A DNA stretch of 64,000 nt from Pseudomonadales bacterium. Its GTDB lineage: Bacteria > Pseudomonadota > Gammaproteobacteria > Pseudomonadales > Azotimanducaceae. Location of the stretch: the NCBI GenBank assembly GCA_963664635.1, contig OY761542.1, positions 2,644,112 through 2,708,111 of the forward strand, read 5' to 3'. A model generated the notes under the pieces. The model made no database searches, had not been told where the DNA came from, and saw nothing but the letters and a program-made list of their open reading frames with translations. Numbering within the stretch: position 1 is the stretch's first letter; each line of letters begins with the position of its first letter. The position numbers and the translations under genes were made by a program. Positions 6,933-22,170 of this stretch are shown piece after piece.

Positions 6933-8021
6933 TTATCCGGCGGGCGTCACCCGCACCACCCGCCCGGCCGCCGAGTCCGTCAGCACGTACAGACTCCCGT
7001 CCGTCCCCGTGCGCACGTCCCGCAACCGCTCCCCGATCTCCTCGAACATGCGGTGCCGCCCGATGACCTCGCCGTTCTCGAGATCCACCCGCTCGACGTA
7101 GTTGAACACCAGCGACGTGACGAACAGGTCCCCGCGCCACTCCGGGAAGGCGTCGCCGTCGTACCAGGTCATCCCGGAGGCCGCGATGGATGGCGTCCAG
7201 TCGATGACCGGCGGCGTCATGCCAGGGTACTCGCGGAACGGCGAGATGCGGGCGCCGGTGTAATCGATGCCGAGGGTCACGATGGGCCAGCCGTAGTTGC
7301 TGCCGGGCGTGAGGACGTTGAGTTCGTCGCCGCCCTGCGCGCCGTGCTCGTGGAGGAAGACGGTCCCGCTCGCCGCGTCGTAGGAGATGCCCTGCGGGTT
7401 GCGGTGGCCGTAGGTCCAGATCTCGTCGCGGGCGGCGGCGTTGTGGACGAAGGGGTTGTCTGCGGGCACGGACCCGTCGTCGTTCAGGCGGACGACCTTG
7501 CCGAGCAGGCTGCCGAGCCGCTGGGACGCCTCGCGATACACGAATCCGTCCCCGGTGGTCAGCAGGAGCGTGCCGTCCGGCAGGAACAGCATGCGCCCGC
7601 CGTAGTGAACGGGCGTGTCCTTCGTCGGTTCGACGGTGAAGACGGTCTCCACGTCCGTGAGCGCGGCGCCGTCGAAACGCCCACGCACGACCCGCGTCGC
7701 GTTCGCCTCCGGCGTGCCGTGCGCGAAACTCAGGTAGAGGAGCCGGTTCTCCTCGAACTTCGGGTGCGGGAGCACGTCGAACATGCCGCCCTGGCTGCGC
7801 GCGTACGCGGGAGGAACGCCCGCGACGGGCCGCGGGTCCAGGATGCCCTCGCGGATGACGTGCAGGTCCCCGTCGCGCTCCGTCACGAGCAGGTCACCGT
7901 CGGGGAGGAAGGCGATGCACCAGGGCCACGTCAGGTTCTCGGCCACCGTTTCCAGCCGGTAGTCGACGGCGCCGGACTGCAGTGCGGCCAGTAGCGCGAG
8001 CCATCCGAGGGCTGCCCGCAT
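6933..8021 (-). CDS. PQQ-dependent sugar dehydrogenase (soluble aldose dehydrogenase, YliI-like)
   Basis: 362 aa from MRAALGWLALLAALQSGAVD (signal peptide). Motifs: WCIAFLPDGDLLVTERDG, HYGGRMLFLPDG, GHRNPQGISYD, GGDELN..PGSNYGWP. Confidence 0.9.
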   Translation of the reverse strand: MRAALGWLALLAALQSGAVDYRLETVAENLTWPWCIAFLPDGDLLVTERDGDLHVIREGILDPRPVAGVPPAYARSQGGMFDVLPHPKFEENRLLYLSFAHGTPEANATRVVRGRFDGAALTDVETVFTVEPTKDTPVHYGGRMLFLPDGTLLLTTGDGFVYREASQRLGSLLGKVVRLNDDGSVPADNPFVHNAAARDEIWTYGHRNPQGISYDAASGTVFLHEHGAQGGDELNVLTPGSNYGWPIVTLGIDYTGARISPFREYPGMTPPVIDWTPSIAASGMTWYDGDAFPEWRGDLFVTSLVFNYVERVDLENGEVIGRHRMFEEIGERLRDVRTGTDGSLYVLTDSAAGRVVRVTPAG

Positions 8022-8531: not shown

Positions 8532-9810
8532 GCGGGAGACCGTAGAGCGGCATCTCAACAGGAACGTCGCCGGACAGCTCCTGCACGGCATGTTCGGCCA
8601 GACGGGCTTCCGGCTGGTGCAGGCGCCCACGTTCTTCCCGGCCTTCCTGTTCGAGTTGTCGGGCTCCGATCTGGTCGTCGGGGCCGCCCGCTCCCTGCAG
8701 GGACTTGGCACGGTGGTCTCGCCGGTGATAGGCGCGTCGCTGATCGGCCATCGGTCCCGCATCGTCGTCACCTCGATGGTCACGAGCACCCTGATGCGCC
8801 TGCAGGTGCTTGGCCTCGCGCTGGCCGCGTTCTTCCTGGGCGCGGGGGCCACGGTCGTTGCGTTCCTTGCCTTCATCACGCTGCTCGGCTTCTTCCAGGG
8901 CATGTCGCAGGTGGTGGTGAACTCGCTGCGGGCCCGGGTCATCCCGGTGCGGCGCCGCGGCATCGTGACCGGCGCGCGCCACTTCCTCGCGGGCTTGACG
9001 TCGGCCGCCGTGTCCTACGTTGCGGGGGCGTACCTGATCGAGAACGACGTGCTCGGAAATGGCTACGCGTCGGTGTTCCTGCTGGCCTTCGTGCTCGGGT
9101 CGCTGGGTCTCGTGGGCGTCGCCATCACGAAAGAGCCGGCGTCGACCGCGCTCCGCCCGCGCGAGTCGCCGCTGGCGGCGCTGCGGGGCATCGCGCCCCT
9201 GCTCCGGGAGGACCGGGCGTTCGCACGGTTCTTCGTGGCCCGCGCGCTCGGGTCCTGCGGCCGGATGGCCCTGCCGTTCTACATCGTGTTCGCCGCGACG
9301 CGGATGGAGGTCACCGGCGCCGTGCTCGGTCTCGTCACGACGGTGTGGATGCTCACGTCCAGTACGGCGACCCTGGCCTGGGGCGCGCTGGGCGACCGCC
9401 ACGGCCATCGCGTCGTGCTGATCGCCAACCTGGCGCTGTGGACGGCCGCCAACGCGTACATTCCGTTCGTCGATTCGGTTCCCGAACTGGTGGTCTTCTT
9501 CGTCGTGCTCGGCATCCCGTCGGGCGGCTTCAACCAGGCGGCGCAGAACATGGTGCTCGAGTTCGGCCGCGTGCACGACATTCCCCTGCGCGTCGCGGCT
9601 TCCGGGACGGCCGTCAACGTCGTGGCCGCCGCGGGACCGTTCGTGGGCGGGGTGCTGGTGGCGGTGTGGTCGTACCCCGCGCTGTTCGGGGTAACGGTCG
9701 CCCTCCAGCTTTTGGCGCTCGTGATCGTGATCGCGTGGACGCCGGAGCCGCGCTTCGCCGATATCGGCGCGGCGCCCCGCGCCGATCGCGGGGAGACCGG
9801 AGAGGGCTGA
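8500..9810 (+). CDS. MFS transporter
   Basis: 436 aa with about 12 hydrophobic segments in a 6+6 layout and a central loop (KEPASTALRPRESPLAAL). The exact start is uncertain; it overlaps the previous ORF by 32 nt. Confidence 0.8.
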   Translation: MPGDALVEAAERETVERHLNRNVAGQLLHGMFGQTGFRLVQAPTFFPAFLFELSGSDLVVGAARSLQGLGTVVSPVIGASLIGHRSRIVVTSMVTSTLMRLQVLGLALAAFFLGAGATVVAFLAFITLLGFFQGMSQVVVNSLRARVIPVRRRGIVTGARHFLAGLTSAAVSYVAGAYLIENDVLGNGYASVFLLAFVLGSLGLVGVAITKEPASTALRPRESPLAALRGIAPLLREDRAFARFFVARALGSCGRMALPFYIVFAATRMEVTGAVLGLVTTVWMLTSSTATLAWGALGDRHGHRVVLIANLALWTAANAYIPFVDSVPELVVFFVVLGIPSGGFNQAAQNMVLEFGRVHDIPLRVAASGTAVNVVAAAGPFVGGVLVAVWSYPALFGVTVALQLLALVIVIAWTPEPRFADIGAAPRADRGETGEG

Positions 9811-10474: not shown

Positions 10475-10772
10475 GGGTGTCCCCCTCCGGTGTGTGAGGT
10501 GCATGCGTTGTGTGGCGCTGGATCGCGATAGGAGCTTGCGACGTACAAGCGTTTGAAGTAGGACGGTCTGCGTGCCCCTGCAACGGTATGCGCCTCTCGT
10601 TTTCCGATAATATCGTTCATTATCAATCGGATAAGGTCGTTTTCGACGTGCAATAGGGTGCCATCCAGTGTCATTCGACGCCAACGGTTGACGCCCTGCA
10701 TTGTGGGACGCGTTGTAAGCCAATAGCCGCCTGTGTAGAATGGGATTCCGCCCGGAATCCGATGCCCGTCCC

Positions 10773-11963
10773 ATGCCGAAGCTCAATCGCAACGCCCTGT
10801 CCGCCCAAATGGTACGCCACGCCGGTCCCGGCAGCTATGTGGACGGCAACGGCCTCATGCTGCGGGTCCGCGACAGCGGCTCCCGTTCCTGGGTGCAGCG
10901 CATCATGGTCCATGGACGGCGCATCGACATCGGCCTCGGCAACGCGGAGCTGGTGAGCCACGCCGACGCGCGGCGCATCGCGGCCGACAACCGCGCCGTG
11001 GCCCGCACTGGCGGGGATCCGCGCCGTGCGCGGACCATCTCGTTCGCCGAGGCGGAACCGCGGGCGATGGCGGAGAAGGCGGAGACCTGGCGCGGCGGCG
11101 GCGCCGCGAAGTCGGCCCGCGACTGGCGCTCCACGATGGACGCCTACGTACTGCCGCAGTTGGGGACGATGCACGTGGGGGCGGTGGCGACCAGCGACGT
11201 CAAGCGGGTGCTGCGCCCATTGGCGCTGGCGGGCAAGCACGCGACGGCGCGCATGGTGGCGGGCCGCATCGTGGCGGTGCTGGAGTGGGCGGAGGTGGAG
11301 AACCTGCGCGAGCCGGCCGGCAGCGGGCGGGTGATCGTGGAGACGGTGATGCGCTCGCTGCCGAAGGCCGGAGCGGTGCGGCACCACCCGGCGCTGCACT
11401 TCGCCGACGTGGCGGATGCGCTTGCCAGAGTGGACGCGCACCCGCGTATCGCGCGCTGGGTTCAGCTCGCGATCCGGTTCGCGGCGCTGACGGCGGCGCG
11501 GCAGGCGGAGGTACGGCGGGCGACCTGGGAGGAGTTCGACTTCGAGTCCGCGGTGTGGACGGTGCCGGCGGCGCACATGAAGCGCCACCGGCCGCACCGG
11601 GTGCCGCTGTCGACGGGCGCCCTGGTCGTGCTGGCGGAACTGCGCGAGGCGTCCGACGGCGACGCGGTCGTGTTCCGCGGCCCGCACGGTCAGCAGCTCG
11701 GTGCGACCTCGGTGACGAACGCGCTGCGCAAGGCGGAGATCAATGCCACCGGGCACGGTTTCCGTTCGAGTTTCAAGGACTGGGCGCGCCACGAGGGTGT
11801 GGACGAGCTGCTGTCGGAGTTCGCGCTGGCGCACGTCGAGGGCTCGAAGACGGTGGCGGCCTACGCGCGCGACGATCTCCTCGAGAAGCGGCGCCCGGTG
11901 ATGCAGGCGTGGTGCGACCTCATCCTGCGACGAGAGGATCGTCGCGGTCGCGCAAGCGGCTGA
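10773..11963 (+). CDS. tyrosine-type site-specific integrase, P4-like (Arm/DUF4102 N-terminal domain)
   Basis: MPKLNRNALSAQMVRHAGPGSYVDGNGLMLRVRDSGSRSWVQRIMVHGRRIDIGLGN...ADARRIA is the classic arm-binding domain. The C-terminal catalytic region is HGFRSSFKDWARHE...LAHVEGSKTVAAYARDDLLEKRRPVMQAW. Confidence 0.9.
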   Translation: MPKLNRNALSAQMVRHAGPGSYVDGNGLMLRVRDSGSRSWVQRIMVHGRRIDIGLGNAELVSHADARRIAADNRAVARTGGDPRRARTISFAEAEPRAMAEKAETWRGGGAAKSARDWRSTMDAYVLPQLGTMHVGAVATSDVKRVLRPLALAGKHATARMVAGRIVAVLEWAEVENLREPAGSGRVIVETVMRSLPKAGAVRHHPALHFADVADALARVDAHPRIARWVQLAIRFAALTAARQAEVRRATWEEFDFESAVWTVPAAHMKRHRPHRVPLSTGALVVLAELREASDGDAVVFRGPHGQQLGATSVTNALRKAEINATGHGFRSSFKDWARHEGVDELLSEFALAHVEGSKTVAAYARDDLLEKRRPVMQAWCDLILRREDRRGRASG

Positions 11964-12072: not shown

Positions 12073-12255
12073 ACCATGTCGCTGCCGCCGGCAGGGTCGA
12101 CGTTCGTGACGTGGTGGACGGACCCGGAGGGTTGGTCCGCAAGTCCGGCGTCGCGTGCGTGTGAGGCGGCGGGCTGGCGGCTGGAGTCCGTGCAGGTGGC
12201 CGCAGAGCTGGTGCGGTTCATGCGGACAGGGGTGGACGAAGCATCCACGGCTTGA
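12073..12255 (+). CDS. hypothetical small protein (60 aa), weak call
   Basis: ATG at 12073 and GC3-rich codons (MSLPPAGSTFVTWWTDPEGW...). No recognisable motif and no clear SD. Confidence 0.25.
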   Translation, partial: TMSLPPAGSTFVTWWTDPEGWSASPASRACEAAGWRLESVQVAAELVRFMRTGVDEASTA

Positions 12256-12495
12256 CGATGAAGGCCTGCGCGACGCGTTCGCCCGCGCTGGCGACGCCGA
12301 GAGTGGCCTCGTTCGCAACATGGCCCGCGTTTTAGGAAAGCAGGGCACTGTCAAGCGCGATTCGGGGGTCGCTCCGGCCCGGATCGGACCTCGCGGCGGC
12401 CATTGTCGGCCAACGGACGGAGTGGCCGTCGCGACGGTGGCGAGGGCCGGCGCCGGGGATGCGGCGGCCGGCCCGGGCGCGTTGTGGCGTCGCGG

Positions 12496-14034: not shown

Positions 14035-14982
14035 CTACGAGCAGTAAGTCAAGGTTATGTCCGGGCGCAGGTGTCCCATTTCCTCGGCGACGATCGCGAG
14101 CGCGAGGTGGTGCTCCGCGTGATGCATCAGTTCCCGCATCCTTGATTGGGCGTACTGGTAGCGCAGCCCATGGGCGCCCTTGCTCTTCCCCAGCGCCGCC
14201 ATGCTGGCGCGCGAGAACGACACGCTGAAGGCGTGTCCGCCGCCGACATCGTAGCGTAGCCGGTAGCGGACGCCGCGGTCGACGACGGGCACCGGGACGT
14301 CCAGCCGCCGTTCCTCGAGGCGTTCCGCCAGACCGCGCGGCAATAGCACCTCCCGGACCAGCCCGCCCTTGCCGACAACGGTGTAGATCACGCCGTTGCG
14401 GCCGGCGAACTTCATGCCCTCGGCGGCGGTGCCCGTGAGGTGCGACCGGTCGCGCCGGTCGTCGGGCGGCTGTTCGGCGGGGCGGCCCAGAGTGAGCAGC
14501 TCGTGGGCCCGGATCCCCGAGGCGTGGGCGATCTCGGTGGCGAGCGCGTTGCGGGGATCCTGCCGGGCGGCGACGGCGCGGACCTGGGCCGGGGAGTAGG
14601 CGCGCGGCCTGGGACGGTGCGGTTCCGTGGACTTCACCACCGGCAGCGTGGCGCCCGGCGGCAGTTGGCCGGTGACGCCGACCATCATCGCCTGGATCGC
14701 CTGCCGCTCCATGTCCAGGGTTTTCTGAGCCACTTCGCCAGCCCGGCCCTTCAGGTAGGCGACGGCGCGCTCGGGCGTCAGCGCGGTCAGCGCCACATCC
14801 AGCCGCGCGGCGATCTGCACCAGCCGCTCCTGGTAGTTCCTCCCGGTGCCGACCGACCGGATGCGCGCGCCCTGCAGGCGCTTGACGACGCCGGCGGCCT
14901 GCTTCTTCGGATCGCTGGGCTTCGAGCGGAACCGGTGGCGCGGCTGGTCGTGGCCGCGGCGGACGCGGCTACGCCTGGCCAT
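14035..14982 (-). CDS. tyrosine recombinase / phage integrase-family protein
   Basis: 315 aa from MARRSRVRRG. ASGIRAHELLTL (catalytic Arg box), HGLRYQYAQSRM and MGHLRPDITLTYC (His..Tyr box). The 5' extension in ORF 14035..15111 was rejected. Confidence 0.8.
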   Translation of the reverse strand: MARRSRVRRGHDQPRHRFRSKPSDPKKQAAGVVKRLQGARIRSVGTGRNYQERLVQIAARLDVALTALTPERAVAYLKGRAGEVAQKTLDMERQAIQAMMVGVTGQLPPGATLPVVKSTEPHRPRPRAYSPAQVRAVAARQDPRNALATEIAHASGIRAHELLTLGRPAEQPPDDRRDRSHLTGTAAEGMKFAGRNGVIYTVVGKGGLVREVLLPRGLAERLEERRLDVPVPVVDRGVRYRLRYDVGGGHAFSVSFSRASMAALGKSKGAHGLRYQYAQSRMRELMHHAEHHLALAIVAEEMGHLRPDITLTYCS

Positions 14983-15385
14983 TGGCGTGCTTCCGCAGCC
15001 AGCGGGAAACGGTGGAGCGGTCCACCCGCAGCCCGTGCTCGTCGCGCAGCGTCCGGTGGCACTCGCCGATGGTGGCGCCCTGGGCGCGCAGTCTGAGCAC
15101 GTGGTAACCATGCTCGTCGATGCTTGAGACGGTCAGGCGCGGAAAGCGCAGCTCCCGGTCGCGGGCCCGGAGTTCGTCGAGGGCGGCGGCGGCATCGAAG
15201 CCGAGGGCGGGATTGACGCGGAGCGTATCCACCTTGGCGAGCCAGCGCCCGGCGGTCGTCGCCGCGACGACGGTGTCGCGCTCGAAGCGCAGCCAGCGGG
15301 TCAACTGGGCGAGCGTGGCCCCGGCCCGCCGCAGGGCGAGCAGTTCGGCTGCGTGGCGGTCGAGCGTCGACCGGCGCTGTCCCAT
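14969..15385 (-). CDS. helix-turn-helix DNA-binding protein (two HTH modules), partner of the recombinase
   Basis: 138 aa. GATLAQLTRWL and GATIGECHRTLRDEHGLRVDRSTVSRWLRK resemble Hin/resolvase-type HTHs. The 3' end overlaps the recombinase start by 14 nt. Confidence 0.6.
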   Translation of the reverse strand: MGQRRSTLDRHAAELLALRRAGATLAQLTRWLRFERDTVVAATTAGRWLAKVDTLRVNPALGFDAAAALDELRARDRELRFPRLTVSSIDEHGYHVLRLRAQGATIGECHRTLRDEHGLRVDRSTVSRWLRKHANGQA

Positions 15386-16243
15386 GTGCGTACCTCCGAG
15401 CGCACGACCTGTGTGGTGATCCGTAGCCGTTAGAACTATTGCCGCGTTCCAACGCTTCTCTCGAAACGTCCGGATCGACGCGGCTCAGCGGGATCGGAAG
15501 CGCCGTGGCGTTCCTCTCCCGACTCGCCCACGTTCAGTCCTTGATGGACTCGGCCGGGACCGTTCTCGCCGTTGCAGGTGGTTGTCGCGCTGTGTAGCCG
15601 CGCGGGATGCCCTGCCGCATCCCGTCCATGTCGCGTTCGTCACGGTTGCGCACGGACGCCTGAAGCGCCGATGGATCGCATCGGTTGCTTGCTGCTATGG
15701 GCTTGTGGCCCAAACGGTGTGTTGCCGGGACCGCCCGGCTCGACTTCGCGGGCGTGACCCGCCGGAGGCGTGGGTGGCCTCCTGCCGCACTGTCGCAGGA
15801 TCGCTGCGTTGCCCTTGCGGGCCGGGAGCCGTGCGGTCGCCCCGTGGTAGCTGCCTTCGGTCGGCACGTCCCGTGGCCAGCGGGGAATCAGGTATGGCCA
15901 GTCGGCGTTGCGCTGGCCGGAGGGTCGCTCCAGGTCACGCTTTGCGCGGATGTCGCCGCGCCGGAGGCCGCCGTCGCCCCCGGTACGCTTCGTGTCACAT
16001 GGCACTTGCTGCGTCTTCACGCGCCGGAGCCGCGTACGGGTGCCCCGGTTCAGGCGTCGGTGCGCCGCTTCTCTGGTGTGGCTAGGACCGGTCGGTCCAA
16101 CGTCGCCGCTCCGGTCGGAGCTGGCGGGTAGTGGCGGAGATTATGGGCGACGCCGGGTAATGCGCGCAAATGTGTGCGTGAACGGTTGGAGAGCGCGCAC
16201 GAGTCGTCCTGAACTTGGAGCGGCCGGGCCAGAGCGGCGTGCT

Positions 16244-16289
16244 GCGCGTCAATCAAGATGAGAACGGCTTCTCATCCTGATTGACGCGC
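16244..16289. repeat. long hairpin / inverted repeat (21-bp arms, 4-nt loop)
   Basis: GCGCGTCAATCAAGATGAGAA-cggc-TTCTCATCCTGATTGACGCGC. There is one A/C mismatch on the + strand, which becomes a G-U wobble on the minus strand. No U-tract follows on either strand. Confidence 0.85.
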
Positions 16290-16403
16290 TACAGCGGCGA
16301 GCGGCTGGACGACGAGGGGGGACCCCAATGGCTACGAGACATCTGCGCTGGGCCGTCGACGCAGTGTCGTCAAGCCCAATCGGTCGCTCGTCACGCGTGG
16401 GGG

Positions 16404-16431
16404 TTGACACTGCGGCAGGACGTGTAGTGTC
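16404..16431 (+). promoter_or_regulatory. possible promoter/operator of the 4-gene operon
   Basis: TTGACA (16404-16409), N15, TAGTGT (16425-16430). It overlaps a 6-bp inverted repeat GACACT...AGTGTC. It lies about 35 nt upstream of the first operon ORF. The spacing is suboptimal. Confidence 0.3.
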
Positions 16432-16467
16432 ATTACTTCACGGAAAGATAGTTGGAGAACCACTGTG

Positions 16468-16662
16468 ATGACCGATGAAGAGAAGAGCGCCTTGACGCTC
16501 ACTGTGTTGCTGACCCTTGCTGTCGAAGGCATCAGGGTGGCCTTTAGTTTCGTGGATCGCAGCTTGGCGCACTGGCAGGGCCGCAAAGAAGAGGAACGGC
16601 GGCGCGCTGCGAGACAAGCGCGTGCCGACAAGGAACCTGAGGGAGAGAGCTATGTCCTCTGA
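16468..16662 (+). CDS. small hypothetical protein with one hydrophobic helix
   Basis: MTDEEKSALTLTVLLTLAVEGIRVAFSFV followed by a charged tail. GGAG lies 10 nt upstream of the ATG (an in-frame GTG at 16465 is also possible). It overlaps the next gene by 11 nt. Confidence 0.35.
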   Translation: MTDEEKSALTLTVLLTLAVEGIRVAFSFVDRSLAHWQGRKEEERRRAARQARADKEPEGESYVL

Positions 16663-17005
16663 CAATCCGTACGGGCCAGGCCGGGCCAAGCGTTGGGTGA
16701 AAGGCGGCACGAGGCTCCCGCCAGGAACGGCCGGAGAGTACCGGATCGTGAAAAAGGAGACGGGCAAGCCACACTACATCGGGGAGTCCGGAGACCTCGA
16801 GCGCCGACTGAATCAGCATACGCGTATGGGGAAGGCTGGGACCACGGACAAGAGCCACCTGTACGACGCGAGCAAGCACGAGATCACCTATCAGGTGGCG
16901 AAAGCCGGTGCATCGACCGAGGCCCGGCGAGAGCACGAGAGGAGGAAGATCGCTGAGCATGCCCCCTCCTGGAATCTGGACCGCGGGGGGAGCGGAAGGA
17001 GATGA
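16652..17005 (+). CDS. GIY-YIG domain nuclease (stand-alone, 117 aa)
   Basis: GEYRIVKKETGKPHYIGESGDLERRLNQHTR gives the GIY and YIG elements and the catalytic Arg. Downstream are EARREHERRKIAEH (Glu) and ..SWN. Start at ATG 16652 after GGGAGAGAG. Confidence 0.75.
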   Translation: MSSDNPYGPGRAKRWVKGGTRLPPGTAGEYRIVKKETGKPHYIGESGDLERRLNQHTRMGKAGTTDKSHLYDASKHEITYQVAKAGASTEARREHERRKIAEHAPSWNLDRGGSGRR

Positions 17006-18096
17006 AGACACACGACGCTCAAGGTCGGCCTGTGCTGACGTTGATTCGGGGTGGGAGACCGCTGGGTGTACAAGATCCGTCTCAAACTCATCTGGCGTCA
17101 GGTCAGGGGAGAAGTGGTCGCGCGAGTGCACGGGACAATGGGCCCCAATTGATGCCAACCGAGGACAATCGCATGTCAGAGAAAAGCAAACTTCCAGAGA
17201 GGATCGCCGGGATGGCCTTCGGCACAAACGACCGCCAGAGCATCCAACGCGTGGGCGAGCTCCATAGGGTCTCCGAGTCGCACGTCGTGCGAAGCTGCGT
17301 GGGCATCGGGCTCCTGGTGTATTCGGACATTCGTCTGCGGTCTAGGATCGCGACGGCCGCCAAGGACCATGCGACAAGTGAGCGCGCCGTGATTCAAGCG
17401 GCGGTTCGGCGGGGGTTGGAACGTGCCCGGTTTGGCACGCGCCCGAGTGTGGAGCGCCTGGACAAGGGCGCTGAGGGAGAGCAGCGGCCTAAGGGCAAGT
17501 ATCCGAAGCGAATCGCGGGGCTGGCCTTCAGCGTGGACGACTATGAAGCCGTTCGACGGATCAGGGCGAGCCGTGAAGTTTCCGAGGCGCAGGTTGTGCG
17601 AGAGTGCAGTTCGATTGGCTTGGCGATCTATGTGGACGATGAGTTGCGGAGTCGGATCGAAGATGCGGCCTTCCGGCACGGGAGGCGCGAGCGGGACATC
17701 GTCTACAGCGCCATGCAACAAGGGCTGGAGGAGGCCCTTGTCTGGCTTCGGCTGGCTCCGGTATTGCGAATCAGGGACGGACTACGGGCTGAGGATCCAG
17801 GACTTGATTTGAAGCTGACCGAGTACATTCATGCCGTTGGGAGACGAGTCCAGCCGGTGGGTCTCCCGGATCCGCTTTTCGCTGATGAGAGGGATCGAGG
17901 TTGGACGGAATCATCCTTGGAACTGCAAGGCCTCCATGAAACGTTGAGCGAGAGCCCTCTGGACGAGCATGATCGGCTGTTGGCCAGCTACCTCGACGGA
18001 CGTAGTGCTGAGGCGAAGGAGCAAGCTCGGCGATCGTTTGAAGCCCGCCGGTCCGAACTGCTTGAGCTTCGGGGGCTAGGGGACGAGGAAGTGTGA
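17002..18096 (+). CDS. hypothetical protein with two tandem ribbon-helix-helix-like modules and an acidic helical C-terminal region
   Basis: Internal duplication: ERIAGMAFGTNDRQSIQRVGELHRVSESHVVRSCVGIGLLVYSDIRLRSRIATAAKDHATSERAVIQAAVRRGLE versus KRIAGLAFSVDDYEAVRRIRASREVSEAQVVRECSSIGLAIYVDDELRSRIEDAAFRHGRRERDIVYSAMQQGLE. ATGA overlap with the GIY-YIG gene. Confidence 0.6.
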   Translation: MKTHDAQGRPVLTLIRGGRPLGVQDPSQTHLASGQGRSGRASARDNGPQLMPTEDNRMSEKSKLPERIAGMAFGTNDRQSIQRVGELHRVSESHVVRSCVGIGLLVYSDIRLRSRIATAAKDHATSERAVIQAAVRRGLERARFGTRPSVERLDKGAEGEQRPKGKYPKRIAGLAFSVDDYEAVRRIRASREVSEAQVVRECSSIGLAIYVDDELRSRIEDAAFRHGRRERDIVYSAMQQGLEEALVWLRLAPVLRIRDGLRAEDPGLDLKLTEYIHAVGRRVQPVGLPDPLFADERDRGWTESSLELQGLHETLSESPLDEHDRLLASYLDGRSAEAKEQARRSFEARRSELLELRGLGDEEV

Positions 18097-18121
18097 CGGC
18101 TAGGCGTCCGCAAAGGATCAG

Positions 18122-18814
18122 ATGACGGCGATACTTGACCACATTGGGCGCTTGTACGGTTGTTTCGACGCTGGGGACTTCGAGCGCTACGTAGTGCGCG
18201 ACATCTTGCAGGGCGACGACCTCAAGGTCGTGCTTGTGTTCGAGTCGCCCCACCGTGACGAGTTGAAGGACACCAACCCTCAGCGTCTCCCAGCGGTTGG
18301 AGCTACTGGGCGATCCGTGACGAAACTGCTCGATGGGTTGGTCCACCAGACCGGTTCGATGCGTCCACCGATACGAACTGAGCCAATAGGGCGACTGTGT
18401 GGACGACGGGACAACGGATTCGGATGGCTTGGCCTCATGAGTGCCTGTCAGATCCCGCTCCAGAAGAAAGCGTACGACGGCAATGCGGAGTTGCAGCGCA
18501 GCTATGGAAGTCTCTTGGCGGATTTGCAGACTTTCAAGGACGCACTGGATGGCGATGAGGACGCCGACGTCATTGGAGGCGATTTGGGACAAGCGATAGC
18601 GGCTGTTCTTGCGGAGCGGCTGGGACCAGTTCAGCAGCGCAGGCTGCTACTTGTACCCTGCGGCAGGGTCGCACGAGCCCTATGTGGGGCGGCAGGCGTT
18701 CATGTTGATAGCAGGTTGCCCCGAGTTCCACATCCTTTGGCACCGGATGCTTGGGGGCATGCGCCGGCGCTCGTGGAGATGGCGAGGGTGATCCGAAGTG
18801 TGCTTGAGGACTAG
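18122..18814 (+). CDS. divergent uracil-DNA-glycosylase-superfamily (UDG-fold)-like protein
   Basis: By-eye alignment to family-4 UDG motifs. VVLVFESPHRDE...PAVGATGRSVTKLL corresponds to lmlVGEgPGeeEd..PFVGkAGqLL. LMSACQIPL corresponds to NivkCrPP. LLLVPCGRVA corresponds to ivplGavA. PRVPHPLAP corresponds to HPa/s. This is inference only. Confidence 0.55.
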   Translation: MTAILDHIGRLYGCFDAGDFERYVVRDILQGDDLKVVLVFESPHRDELKDTNPQRLPAVGATGRSVTKLLDGLVHQTGSMRPPIRTEPIGRLCGRRDNGFGWLGLMSACQIPLQKKAYDGNAELQRSYGSLLADLQTFKDALDGDEDADVIGGDLGQAIAAVLAERLGPVQQRRLLLVPCGRVARALCGAAGVHVDSRLPRVPHPLAPDAWGHAPALVEMARVIRSVLED

Positions 18815-19739
18815 CTCTGGTGCGCCTCACGGTGGACAACGGTCCCGGCTATCAGCCCCGCACGTTCAGCACTCTCGAGCGCGTTTCGGGGCCGGATCGG
18901 GCTCCGGATGGGCCATTTTCGGACAACGGGCCGCGTGGCCGCGGCGGCGACCAGGCCGAAGATCGGGCGCTGCATGAGCAGGATCGGGCACGGCACAGCG
19001 GCAAGCCGGTCGGCCTGGCGGGGGACAAGCGGTCGGCGATGAGTTAGAAATTTCTCGCATCCGACCGATGCTTGTCGGTCGGTCGGCGCTGAGCGGAATC
19101 GCGGGTACCAATCCGGTCATCCTGTTCGCACCCTGTTTCGTCCTTGCGGACGGCGCCGGCACTGTTCTCGCGCTGTTCCTTTGGTCAGTGGAACGTCTGC
19201 GACGCGTTGCGCGTCATCCCGTATTGTTCAGCCGTCGCTGCGCATCGGGGCGTCTCGCTGGGTTACCCGCAGTCTGCCTGATGCGCGCTCCGGTTGTGTC
19301 AGCCGGGATGTTGCTGGAACGGTCGCCACTGGCGACTGCGCCCGTTGGTTCAGCTAGGGTCGTGCTGGGGTCCACGCGGTGGACCCTTCCCGATGATTTT
19401 GCATGGTGGGGAAGCCATGTCCGGGTCACAGATCCCGGCGTCTGTATGCTTGGTGCGGATCGTAGACGCTCCCCGGACCCAGGGCAAGCGGCGTTTGCGG
19501 GTGTGCGTGGCGCATGTTAGTCGCCATCTGTGCGCGAATCTTGGCACAGCCAGCCCCCACGCTGGAACCGGTCCAGACGCGCGCTCGGACACGGTGCGCG
19601 ACTGCGCCGGCGGCGGGCTTCGGCGGCGCCCCGTCGTTCAGGCGCTGGCACAACAAGGCACACGCCGCGGACGCACAAGGTGGCGATCAGGTGCGCGGCG
19701 GGGCTGCACGCGAGATCGTGCGCGGTTCGGCGGAAACCC

Positions 19740-19792
19740 CGCCCCGACGCCGTGGGACGCGACAGTCAGGTCCGTCCCACAGCGTCGGGGCG
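19740..19792. repeat. long hairpin (19-bp stem, 15-nt loop) in a gene-free stretch
   Basis: CGCCCCGACGCCGTGGGAC ... GTCCCACAGCGTCGGGGCG. There is a single C/A mismatch on the + strand (G-U on the minus strand). Confidence 0.8.
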
Positions 19793-19979: not shown

Positions 19980-20531
19980 ATGGGACAGTCCCCGATGCGC
20001 GAGAAGCTCGCTGAAGCACGGTACTTCCGGGCCGGGATGGATCGGAACGCAAACGACCTGACCCCCTTCAAATGTGAGCTGAGCGCGTTTCTGACGGCGG
20101 CGCGGACGGTGTTGCAGTACCTTCGGGATGAGTGCGGCAACGCGGGACGCCAAGGGTGGTATGACAACAAGATGGCCGATCAGATGTTCCGGTTTATGGG
20201 ATGCCAAAGGAACGTGAACATCCACGAGCGCCCCATAGAGCCTAGGCAGAACGTGACCTCGACAGTCGAGGAGCGAGTAGTTCTCAGGGATAGCTTCTCG
20301 ATCACGACGACCGATGAACACGGGAACGTCGTTCAGCACGAGGAGATCGAAACGACACTGCCAGAGGCGGTGCCGACCGAGATCGAACGAACGGTCGAGT
20401 ACCGGTTCGCTGACTGGACCGGCCAAGAAGATGTTCCCGCGCTGTGCGACAAATACGTGGGTGCGCTTGAGTCCATCCTTGATGCATGGGACCAGGTGCA
20501 GACTGGCGTAGCAGGCACGAAGGGCACTTAG
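19980..20531 (+). CDS. hypothetical protein with HEPN-like Rx4H motif
   Basis: 183 aa with SD GGAGGG 5 nt upstream. Helical N-terminal half (REKLAEARYF...ELSAFLTAARTVLQYLRDE) ends in QRNVNIHE, the R-N-x-x-x-H signature of HEPN RNases. Confidence 0.55.
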   Translation: MGQSPMREKLAEARYFRAGMDRNANDLTPFKCELSAFLTAARTVLQYLRDECGNAGRQGWYDNKMADQMFRFMGCQRNVNIHERPIEPRQNVTSTVEERVVLRDSFSITTTDEHGNVVQHEEIETTLPEAVPTEIERTVEYRFADWTGQEDVPALCDKYVGALESILDAWDQVQTGVAGTKGT

Positions 20532-20683: not shown

Positions 20684-21652
20684 ATGTTCGGGAGTGGAAG
20701 GATGGGCGACGATCGGGCGGAGGAACACTTGGTCTGGTGTCCATACACCGACAAGGAGATCCGGTTGGCCGACACCACACCAGAGCACGTGGTCCCGCTT
20801 TCGCTCGGTGGCGTTAGCGAGTTTTGCGTACGTACGGAGAAAAAGGCGAATTCGGATATTGGGTCGAAAATCGACGCACCCTTGGCGGATGAGTTCCTCG
20901 TGAAACAGCGCCGGAACCGGCTCGGCATGGTCGGGCACAGCGGGAACCACCCGGTTGTGACGTGGAAGAGTTCGGAGCTTGACTCTGGCGAGCCGGTGCA
21001 GGTGACGCTCGACCGGGGGGACGTACGAATCTGGTCGCCGGTGCGGAAGCAGTACATCGCTGTGGGAAGCGACGTGCAAATCCGCTCGAAGTGGACCATG
21101 TATGTGGACACGCCCCTTCGTTTCGCGGCCAAGGTCGCGCTGTCGGCCGGGTACTTCGTGTACGGAGATCTCTTCCGGCGCGCCGTGGCGCATGACGAGG
21201 TTCGTTTCATTATGGAGTTCGACCTACGCGGTGTGACGCCCGGCGAAAGAGCCGAACTCGAAAGACGTGCGTCGACGATGGGGGTTCAAGCAGAGGACTG
21301 GCTGCGGAGAGACGATAATCCAGATTTGGAAGTGTTCCGGTTGTTGTCTCAGGCGTACGGAAGTTCGTCCATCGCGGGCCTGATCCCTACCAAGAGCTCG
21401 CTGACCGTATTCGTCGGCGTTCTCGGGATGTACGTAGGGCTCGTTGACGCGCCGGCAGACACCACTGAGTTTCCTCTTGGTGGAACGCACGATCTGGGGC
21501 ATGTCGTGGCGCTGCGGGACGGCAAGATCGAACGACAGTCGCTAAGGGACGCGGCGCGAATGCTCGACGGAATGCTGAAGAACGGTTGGCGACCGGAGTA
21601 TGGAGAACCATCCCGTGGCGCCGGCGGTGACGCCGGAGTCAACAGTGACTAG
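20684..21652 (+). CDS. HNH endonuclease domain protein with an uncharacterised ~250-aa C-terminal domain
   Basis: N-terminal CPYTDKEIRLADTTPEHVVPLSLGG....KKANSDIG is an HNH (HNH_5-like) core. An alternative start at ATG 20702 has GGAG 7 nt upstream. Confidence 0.75.
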   Translation: MFGSGRMGDDRAEEHLVWCPYTDKEIRLADTTPEHVVPLSLGGVSEFCVRTEKKANSDIGSKIDAPLADEFLVKQRRNRLGMVGHSGNHPVVTWKSSELDSGEPVQVTLDRGDVRIWSPVRKQYIAVGSDVQIRSKWTMYVDTPLRFAAKVALSAGYFVYGDLFRRAVAHDEVRFIMEFDLRGVTPGERAELERRASTMGVQAEDWLRRDDNPDLEVFRLLSQAYGSSSIAGLIPTKSSLTVFVGVLGMYVGLVDAPADTTEFPLGGTHDLGHVVALRDGKIERQSLRDAARMLDGMLKNGWRPEYGEPSRGAGGDAGVNSD

Positions 21653-22026
21653 GACGAGCCTCCCGTGACTCGCTGTGTCCGGACTGACGATTCACGGCTG
21701 GGGCGGTCGTTGTTGTCGAAGCGTAGGACCGCGTCGAGGACGACGAGCTGTCCGGAGGCGACCTAGTGGCCCTGGCGGACGATCCGGCGTGCTGTGACGG
21801 TCGCTACAGTAGCCTGGTTCGATACTTCGTCTGCGTTTTCGAAAACCATGGCACTGTGGAGCGCGATACGGGGGCCGCATGCGGCCCGGATCGGGCCTCG
21901 ATGATGCGGCACGCCGCACCAAGGCCGCGATGCGGCGGCCCACCGCTGCTCGCCCGCTCCCGTAGCTCAGCGTGCCGTCGGCTGCCGTAGCGTCAAGGGG
22001 AACGCGCCCGGCGTCAGCCGGGCGCC

Positions 22027-22170
22027 CTAGCCCGCATTTCTCACCAGGCCGCTAGTCGGCGTCAAAAGGCTCTTGGGTTTCAAGTAGTTGACTACGATGC
22101 CAAGTGATCGCGCCAAGTACGGACTGCGCTGGCCGCGCCCTCGCGGCCCCTGGTGAGAAATGCGGGCTAG
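22027..22170. repeat. perfect 22-bp inverted repeat pair flanking a 100-bp spacer
   Basis: CTAGCCCGCATTTCTCACCAGG at 22027-22048 and its exact reverse complement at 22149-22170. Confidence 0.9.

Follow-up and report, generated by a model that had tools for sequence, protein, structure and literature searches.

Organisation of the four-gene block

The window analysed here is a 64,000-nt stretch of contig OY761542.1 (assembly GCA_963664635.1) from a Pseudomonadales bacterium. A first-pass annotation of the window had proposed a four-gene module at 16468 to 18814, made up of a small transmembrane peptide, a GIY-YIG nuclease, a tandem ribbon-helix-helix (RHH) protein and a divergent protein of the uracil-DNA glycosylase (UDG) fold. 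We refer to these as the peptide gene (gene 1), the GIY-YIG gene (gene 2), gene 3 and gene 4. The list of open reading frames (ORFs) and a direct reading of the sequence confirm four + strand ORFs in this region (Table 1), and the close packing that had been described is also borne out by the sequence. The ATG of the GIY-YIG gene at 16652 and the TGA of the peptide gene at 16660–16662 give an overlap of 11 nt, the GIY-YIG gene and gene 3 overlap in an ATGA at 17002–17005, and a 25-nt gap (18097–18121) lies between gene 3 and gene 4. Shine-Dalgarno-like GGAG/GAGG sequences are found upstream of the peptide gene, the GIY-YIG gene and an ATG inside gene 3 at 17173.

The ratio of non-synonymous to synonymous substitution rates (dN/dS), measured against homologues from other loci (numbered with the prefix L), was 0.14–0.18 for the GIY-YIG gene, 0.26–0.32 for gene 3, 0.32–0.38 for gene 4 and 0.30–0.43 for the peptide gene. 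All four genes are therefore under purifying selection and are real genes, not chance ORFs of high-GC DNA. The values of 0.3–0.4 for gene 3, gene 4 and the peptide gene are high relative to those of housekeeping genes.

Gene 4 encodes a divergent UDG-fold protein

The gene 4 protein of the window has no match in Pfam (PF03167 included), NCBIfam, PHROGs or PADLOC, and none in the PDB by sequence. A word-indexed search returned only 11 proteins (65–100% identity), and an exhaustive profile search returned 281 clusters of relatives at 50% identity. PF03167 was matched by 34 of 100 sampled distant relatives, the best E-value being 5.6e-10. The family profile aligns ESPH..E....P..G..G to the GE(G/A)PGEEED..GRPFVGRAG of the family 4 UDGs 1L9G, 1VK2 and 4ZBX; against the models TIGR00758 and NF040953 the relatives score 16–24 bits, below the cut-offs of 125 and 250. 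An AlphaFold2 (AF2) model made with an alignment of 100 sequences reached a mean per-residue confidence (pLDDT) of 93.9 and a predicted TM-score (pTM) of 0.91, and has the alpha/beta fold with parallel sheet known from solved UDG structures. When this model was compared with the PDB using Foldseek, ranks 1–48 were all taken by the UDG superfamily (UdgX, TDG, family 4, MUG, UNG and vaccinia D4), with probabilities of up to 1.00, E-values from 6e-3 and TM-scores of 0.24–0.47 (~0.45 for the best). Since the profile alignment, the AF2 model and the Foldseek search agree, the proposal of a divergent UDG fold with altered motifs is correct. Gene 4 belongs to an unnamed, ESPH-type UDG clade that is nearest to family 4 and lies outside both family 4 and the Brig1 family.

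The variant of motif A, E41-S-P-H44..E47, follows the strand at residues 36–40 and aligns to GEGPGEEE of 1L9G. There is a strand at residues 176–179, after which comes motif B, V202-P-H-P205. P57, G60 and G63 are the equivalents of the family 4 PFVGxxG, the protein having Ala where family 4 has the stacking Phe, and it also has P179-C-G181 and W211. E41, E47, G60, G63, P112, G181, H204 and P205 are invariant, and C180 is present in at least 90% of the relatives. Across the family the position of the uracil-stacking Phe of family 4 is occupied by Leu or Ala, which suggests a different base specificity. The four Cys of the family 4 Fe-S cluster are absent from the family, only C109 and C180 being conserved.

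Residue 107 is the equivalent of the base-recognising Asn that follows strand 2 in UDGs, and in the gene 4 family it forms part of an M106-N107 site. At least 90% of the 100 family sequences and all other close homologues have Asn at this position, and the copy in the window has Ser (codon 18440–18442).

There is a conserved, non-coding leader of ~250 nt upstream of gene 4 in L002, L003, L004 and L007, that is, in module copies and solo copies alike. It matched nothing in Rfam, and covariation did not support an RNA structure. The window and L001 have lost the leader; in the window the 25 nt between gene 3 and gene 4 are its only remnant.

Three distant relatives of gene 4 are fusions. P0074 and P0170 have an N-terminal HicB-like antitoxin domain joined to the ESPH-type UDG-like domain, and P0180 has a C-terminal cytidine-deaminase domain, a pairing of deaminase and UDG that could attack DNA.

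Gene 3 encodes a tandem-repeat protein

The gene 3 protein has two repeats of ~83 aa that are 45% identical to one another, and this tandem duplication is kept in every homologue (six were found). The best of five AF2 models had a pLDDT of 78 and the other four 43–53. In the best model a short strand is followed by four helices (beta-alpha-alpha-alpha-alpha); this arrangement occurs twice and is followed by a helical C-terminus, a domain for which no known relatives were found.

The duplication that the first-pass annotation had seen is thus clear. Its assignment to the RHH fold was not confirmed, as no RHH family of Pfam was matched and the best matches, all of them below threshold, are to helix-turn-helix (HTH) domains of the RpiR type. 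Nine of 12 repeats match Pfam HTH_6 (PF01418) at E-values no better than 2e-4, and the best score, 22.7 bits, is below the cut-off of 28.3. The repeat profile matches the RpiR-family HTH chains 2o3f and 4ivn in the PDB at E ~0.006. Matches of the RHH type were weaker (the RHH antitoxin VapB26, E 0.09). A whole-chain Foldseek search of the model against the PDB and BFVD gave nothing significant, the probabilities being 0.21 for TraY and 0.54 for a viral CopG-domain protein. Taken together, the data support tandem repeats of a DNA-binding type and do not settle whether they are RHH domains; the protein is assignable to no family.

Most homologues of gene 3 have been called by gene callers from the equivalent of M58 (17173), and we considered whether translation starts there, the ATGA overlap then being an artefact of taking the longest ORF. 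We rejected this in view of a conserved motif, (S/G)RPxLTLIxGGR, in the extension upstream of M58. The motif is in frame from the ATG over the GIY-YIG stop codon in the window, L011, L012 and L039. L037 also has the motif in frame, without an ATG over the stop codon; the copies of the motif in L003 and L004 are frameshifted relative to the main body of gene 3, L004 being a low-coverage long-read contig. The codons of the motif vary synonymously, indicating that selection acts at the protein level. We therefore accept the start at 17002 and translational coupling to the GIY-YIG gene. The motif may bind a partner or act as a clamp-like docking peptide.

The GIY-YIG protein and the peptide

The gene 2 protein matches PF01541 at 26.7 bits, above the curated cut-off of 22.6, and 10 of 14 GIY-YIG homologues have a precomputed match to the same family. 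Y30 (in GEYRI), Y42-I-G-E45, R52, H56, E96 and N108 are invariant among 13 homologues; they include the Tyr of GIY and of YIG, the catalytic Arg, the metal-binding Glu and the distal Asn. The GIY-YIG assignment is therefore supported and, given that the catalytic residues are all invariant, we expect the protein to be active as a nuclease. It is minimal and stand-alone, with no appended DNA-binding domain, and has two family-specific segments, an N-terminal NPYGPGRxKRW and a C-terminal GGSGRK tail. It matches homing-endonuclease and UvrC-type models weakly, and a sequence search of the PDB found no relative.

The peptide has an N-terminal hydrophobic helix that contains an invariant Glu and Lys/Arg, followed by a charged RKEEERRR tail. 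There is a GGAG Shine-Dalgarno site 8–9 nt upstream of its start. It had been described as a small transmembrane peptide; the gene is real, and with a 19-residue hydropathy maximum of 1.5–2.0 a single-pass transmembrane helix is plausible, not certain. The peptide is kept in the window, L003, L004, L011 and L012, and the equivalent slot in L037/L038 and in L039 holds called ORFs of 54–55 aa.

The block consists of two units that recur together and apart

The block can be divided into two separable units, A (the peptide gene, the GIY-YIG gene and gene 3) and B (gene 4). Unit A was seen in eight contexts, and the two units are joined, or there are remnants of their joining, in five (Table 1). 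The four genes were also found together in other genomes (L003 and L004) with different flanks, so the synteny on which the first-pass proposal depended is real. Homology between L003 and L004 spans exactly the region from the start codon of the peptide gene to the stop codon of gene 4. In these loci the module has a GC content of 59% and the flanks 62–65%, and there is no integrase within 8 kb. In L001, gene 4 and the last seven codons of gene 3 are kept beside a Tn5-like insertion sequence (IS). The view of the block as one obligate four-gene system is overstated, since each of the two units is also found alone and gene 4 has a leader of its own in L003 and L004.

The most divergent copy of the module is L012, where the gene 4 slot holds a 217-aa protein (9150–9803, + strand) with a weak PF03167 match (E 0.0087) and UDG-like motif spacing. 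Searches with hhalign found no relationship to the gene 4 profile, the PDB, NCBIfam or Brig1. This protein may be a non-orthologous glycosylase replacement.

The solo GIY-YIG proteins of L008, L009 and L010 are 66% identical to the module protein and have all the catalytic residues intact; only ~40–50 nt of flank are common to these genes and the module copy. In these loci (1–8369 in L008) the gene lies directly 3' of a type III-B Cmr operon and a Cas_NE0113 gene.

All three families are extremely rare. Among 5.8 billion proteins there were 11 clusters for gene 4, six for gene 3 and 14 for the GIY-YIG gene. Searches by tblastn with genes 2, 3 and 4 found nothing in the PLSDB plasmids or the INPHARED phages. 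The JGI metagenomes and IMG/VR held nothing for gene 3; for gene 4 there was nothing in IMG/VR, and the JGI metagenomes held only distant relatives.

The module is also mobile. Its copies are low in GC (59–63%, flanks 63–70%), and integrases, IS elements and toxin-antitoxin (TA) genes lie near copies of the module or of its units. An AAA_14 + DUF4143 ATPase gene adjoins unit A in L039 (3307–4137) and gene 4 in L007 (1563–2600). Two tRNA genes are found in the island of the solo gene 4 in L002, as is a group II intron domain (RF02012); the positions are 12204–12397 and 15638–15755.

Table 1. Positions of features in the window and arrangement of the units in related loci
Feature	Location	Strand	Remarks
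Peptide gene (gene 1)	16468-16662	+	64 aa
GIY-YIG gene (gene 2)	16652-17005	+	117 aa
Gene 3	17002-18096	+	364 aa; start over the GIY-YIG stop codon
Gene 3, N-terminal motif	17026-17061	+	GRPVLTLIRGGRP; conserved, then variable linker
Gene 3, repeat 1	17185-17430	+	residues 62-143
Gene 3, repeat 2	17491-17742	+	residues 164-247
Gene 3, helical C-terminal domain	17743-18093	+	AF2 model; ~120 aa
Gene 4, UDG-like	18122-18814	+	230 aa
Inverted repeat	16244-16289		21-nt arms, 4-nt loop, 95% complementary; ~180 nt 5' of the module
Candidate promoter	16404-16430	+	TTGACA 16404-16409; palindrome CTGCGGCAG 16410-16418; TAGTGT 16425-16430
P4-type tyrosine integrase of the island	10740-11963	+	bona fide
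Decayed, frameshifted gene remnant	18776-19285	-	85% nt identity to L002 8883-9190; tblastn E 1.75e-14
(S/G)RPxLTLIxGGR motif in other loci	L011 ~7860-7895; L012 ~7845-7880; L039 ~1650-1685; L037 ~4150-4190
Gene 4 leader	L004 7745-8000; L003 7788-8000; L002 7745-8000; L007 80-338
Units A and B, intact	window, L003, L004		unrelated flanks
Units A and B, leader deleted	window, L001		25-nt spacing in both
Unit A and start of leader	L011		unit A and 136 nt of gene 4 leader, then integrase
Unit A alone	L037/L038, L039
Unit A with a different protein	L012		GIY-YIG gene frameshifted; gene 3 and peptide kept
Unit B alone	L002, L005/L006
Gene 4, contig end too close to see the unit A slot	L007
GIY-YIG gene alone	L008-L010 (three assemblies)		beside type III-B Cmr locus

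Genomic context in the window

The location of the block in the lower-GC cargo of an integrase island was confirmed on both counts. The GC content of the window is ~70%, and that of the region from 16 to 22 kb is 61–63.5% (except for 67.6% at 19–20 kb), with flanks of ~70%. The island has a bona fide P4-type tyrosine integrase (Table 1) that is 41% identical to the integrase adjoining the module in L011. The ORF at 14035–15111 is recombinase-like, with weak integrase matches only. Searches of the window for tRNA genes and Rfam families found neither, and there are no convincing attachment (att) repeats in it, only short and possibly chance ones such as a 19-nt pair at 12375 and 21882. At ~22.4 kb genes of the core type (NHL repeat, Ldh_2) set in again.

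The block had been described as insulated by gene-free stretches on both sides. This is true upstream, where 15386–16467 has no recognisable gene. The downstream stretch contains the remnant of a decayed gene (Table 1), of which L002 has an intact relative (195 aa) just 3' of gene 4 and convergent with it, and the L011 island a relative of 340 aa. The remnant gene has no Pfam family match.

The inverted repeat upstream of the module (Table 1) may bind a protein or terminate transcription that comes from upstream. The TTGACA and TAGTGT elements closer to the peptide gene are tentatively taken as a promoter, of which a part (TTGAC and CTGCSGCAGG) is common to the window and L003 only. A consensus scan gave no sigma-70-type site here because the spacer is only 15 nt. 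The palindrome of the candidate promoter, CTGCGGCAGG, was also considered as an operator. This was dropped, as the same sequence recurs inside gene 4, where it encodes the invariant P-C-G-R.

Further along the island, 19980–20531 (+ strand) encodes a 183-aa protein with an RNVNIH (Rx4H, HEPN-like) motif, whose sole family match is a weak one to PADLOC 'Unk_03', and 20684–21652 (+ strand) encodes a 322-aa protein with a sub-threshold HNH_5 match (E 0.0014). Close to where the low-GC region ends on the right there is a perfect 22-nt inverted repeat (22027–22048 and 22149–22170, arms 100 nt apart), which could mark the end of a mobile element or be a MITE-like (miniature inverted-repeat transposable) element. 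There is a hairpin at 19740–19792 with 20-nt arms that are 95% complementary; ~150 nt around it match L011 6945–7091, just upstream of the module in that locus, at 81%. The islands of the window and L011 have several rearranged pieces in common; 21738–21865 is a further match, to L011 3401–3528.

Comparison with known systems

The first-pass annotation knew of no named defence system with this composition, and our PADLOC run likewise gave no match to a system model. NCBIfam gave no match for the cassette either. The four-gene combination corresponds to no named system.

Glycosylases of the UDG superfamily act as antiviral effectors in Brig1 (PMC11078745), Brig2 (10.1101/2025.10.29.685425) and Brig3 (PMC13160076). 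Like these, gene 4 encodes a divergent UDG-fold protein of ~220–260 aa, has transposases and defence genes nearby in the islands or mobile DNA that carry it, and has UDGs of the family 4 type as its best structural match. The Brig genes are also found in small operons with accessory genes (the three-gene operon of Brig1; Brig3-BapA). However, when Brig1, the only one of the three to be compared, was taken from the supplement of PMC11078745 and aligned with the 100-sequence profile of gene 4, there was no detectable sequence homology (hhalign probability 0.3%), and Brig1 has GLNPG and YPWHS where gene 4 has ESPH and VPHP. Additionally, the partner of a Brig enzyme, where it has one, is a glucosyl hydrolase, whereas the cassette pairs gene 4 with a GIY-YIG nuclease.

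By profile and by fold the nearest proteins to gene 4 are the family 4 UDGs (1L9G/1VK2 from T. maritima and 4ZBX from S. tokodaii) and UdgX. Family 4 and gene 4 share the motif A block xxE-x-P-x..E....P-x-x-G..G, an N-x-x-C-x-x-P after strand 2 and the HP of motif B. They differ in that family 4 has GE(A/G)PG where gene 4 has ESPH, and Phe where gene 4 has Leu or Ala. Gene 4 also lacks the four-Cys Fe-S cluster and has an insertion of ~25 residues between the equivalents of helix 1 and strand 2. The TM-score to family 4 and UdgX is only 0.45–0.5.

The gene 2 protein has its catalytic core and motifs in common with GIY-YIG proteins of the YhbQ/URI, Eco29kI, Hpy188I and I-TevI types. It differs from them in that its 117 aa include no appended DNA-binding domain, and it has no methyltransferase partner. 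Gene 3 resembles the TraY protein of the F plasmid (tandem RHH in one chain) in having two repeats per polypeptide, each with beta-alpha-alpha at its start, and its VSEaxVVReCxxiGLxxYxDxrLR resembles the recognition helix and following stretch of the RpiR/MurR HTH_6 domain. All these matches are sub-threshold, however, and gene 3 has in addition the RPxLTLIxGGR motif and the helical C-terminal domain of ~120 aa.

Restriction by the glycosylase R.PabI is enhanced by AP (apurinic/apyrimidinic) endonucleases (PMC10273834). The likeness of the PabI family to the cassette is conceptual, in that excision of a base followed by a nuclease acting at AP sites restricts foreign DNA (PMC10273834). PabI has the unrelated HALFPIPE fold and a methyltransferase partner, and the AP endonucleases that cooperate with it are housekeeping enzymes of the host, not operon partners.

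Possible functions of the cassette

We tentatively favour the interpretation that the cassette is rare, horizontally moved island cargo that acts on DNA in a conflict or defence role, while holding it at somewhat less than an even chance. Like Brig1, Brig2 and Brig3, the enzyme encoded by gene 4 would act on invading DNA, flipping out and excising a pyrimidine that is modified or non-canonical, and the GIY-YIG nuclease, targeted or restrained by the gene 3 protein, would turn the lesions or the foreign DNA into strand breaks. The gene 3 repeat protein may also autoregulate the operon. If each unit keeps some activity alone, as we propose, this would explain the solo copies. If defensive, the cassette would amount to a Brig-type glycosylase to which a nuclease arm has been added. 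A setting of genetic conflict is suggested by the low GC content, the integrase, IS and TA genes nearby, the solo GIY-YIG genes beside type III-B Cmr loci, the fusions of gene 4 relatives to HicB-like and cytidine-deaminase domains and the dN/dS of 0.3–0.4.

A more specific form of this proposal, which we consider unlikely, is a two-enzyme 'base-excision restriction' system. In such a system a dedicated UDG-fold glycosylase would strip a modified base from invading DNA and the minimal GIY-YIG nuclease would make lethal breaks from the resulting lesions. The tandem-repeat adaptor would recruit or license the nuclease, possibly via the N-terminal RPxLTLIxGGR peptide, and the membrane peptide would act as an anchor or, in reserve, as an abortive effector. 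Non-orthologous UDG-fold proteins would be able to replace one another in the glycosylase slot, as L012 hints.

Several results weigh against a conflict role for the whole cassette. Linkage of the units is facultative, unit A occurring without gene 4 (L037/L038, L039) and gene 4 without unit A (L002, L005). The three intact copies of the joined units are 78–84% identical in DNA, so a single juxtaposition event may underlie them all, and the fact that gene 4 has its own leader in L003 and L004 means that co-regulation with unit A is not required. The block holds no modification gene and no phage-sensing gene, and no GIY-YIG nuclease is known to be a dedicated AP endonuclease. The copy of gene 4 in the window has Ser at the near-invariant Asn107. 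All 24 loci of distant gene 4 relatives (L013–L036) are without a GIY-YIG or gene 3 partner, clustering of the neighbours in 17 genome loci (L013–L029) found none conserved across loci, and some of these relatives sit amid ordinary metabolic genes. Finally, PADLOC-DB v2.0.0 gave only motif-level matches for the GIY-YIG protein (E ~0.003), none for genes 3 and 4 and none to any system model.

Some of the same observations would be expected if units A and B were independent island cargo, chance neighbours that do not form one functional system. The units are found apart (to the loci just given can be added the solo GIY-YIG genes of L008–L010), a conserved leader of its own precedes gene 4 in L002, L003, L004 and L007, the distant relatives of gene 4 are always solo, and the joined copies could stem from one fusion event. 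However, three extremely rare families are involved, yet the units are adjacent or leave remnants of adjacency in five contexts. The loss of the leader in the window and L001, which left a gap of 25 nt, implies co-transcription, and another possible UDG-like protein occupies the gene 4 slot in L012. We regard chance association as rather improbable, with perhaps one chance in a handful. An addiction or island-stabilisation role of the TA type has a lower probability in our view. Here the GIY-YIG protein or the peptide would be the toxin, gene 3 the antitoxin and autorepressor, and the UDG-like protein a passenger. The tight overlap of the genes fits such a role, as does the antitoxin-like layout of gene 3 (N-terminal DNA-binding repeats, a C-terminal helical domain and a weak VapB26 match); TA genes are common in the islands concerned, and a HicB-like antitoxin domain is fused to some distant UDG-like relatives. 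It is weakened by the catalytically intact GIY-YIG genes that persist without gene 3 in three assemblies (L008–L010), for in a type II TA system the toxin is not kept without its antitoxin. Additionally, L012 keeps gene 3 and the peptide beside a frameshifted GIY-YIG gene, and gene 3, at 364 aa and in four parts, is far larger than typical antitoxins and matches no TA family model.

The cassette might instead be a small base-excision repair system borne by the element, in which the UDG-fold protein would remove uracil or damage and the GIY-YIG protein would incise in the manner of UvrC or Slx1, protecting host or element DNA. The fold and motifs of gene 4 are closest to those of repair enzymes (family 4, UdgX and TDG), the motif A Glu and motif B His are kept, and several distant relatives lie outside islands amid housekeeping-type genes. 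The uracil-stacking Phe is not conserved, however, and the Fe-S Cys of family 4 are absent, C109 and C180 being the only conserved Cys. The distribution is very rare and patchy, GC is low, integrases and IS elements are nearby and dN/dS is elevated, and base-excision repair has no role for a small membrane peptide or a large DNA-binding partner. A repair function is quite improbable, a little more so than addiction. It is very unlikely that unit A is a selfish, homing-type cassette in which a free-standing GIY-YIG nuclease is given its specificity in trans by the tandem-repeat binder and so furthers the spread of the cassette. Classic homing endonucleases include free-standing GIY-YIG enzymes, and homing-endonuclease models are weakly matched. 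The L003/L004 block is surrounded by chromosomal genes of an ordinary kind, no integrase lies closer than 8 kb, and homology ends tightly at its edges; the solo GIY-YIG genes of L008–L010 share only the ~40–50 nt of flank with the module copy. On the other hand, neither terminal repeats nor a conserved target sequence were found, there is no phage or intron/intein context and there are no homologues in the phage and viral collections. Insertion sites vary by locus, which does not fit site-specific homing, and most copies are inside larger integrase/IS islands, which explains their mobility sufficiently.

Significance

The reach of these findings is tempered by rarity, as the cassette is confined to ~15 assemblies in billions of proteins. 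If the interpretation as a DNA-targeting defence cargo is right, the cassette would couple an antiviral glycosylase of the UDG fold to a dedicated nuclease and a DNA-binding adaptor, an addition to Brig1–3, and would bring with it a new ESPH-type clade of UDGs of at least 281 clusters at 50% identity. As the base-binding pocket of the ESPH type differs from that of the uracil enzymes, a new modified base may be recognised, and such an activity would be of use in mapping or editing modified DNA. If the defence interpretation is wrong, an unnamed family of UDGs, a rare GIY-YIG cassette of three genes and a conserved peptide motif at an N-terminus, which are annotated in no current database, are still delineated.

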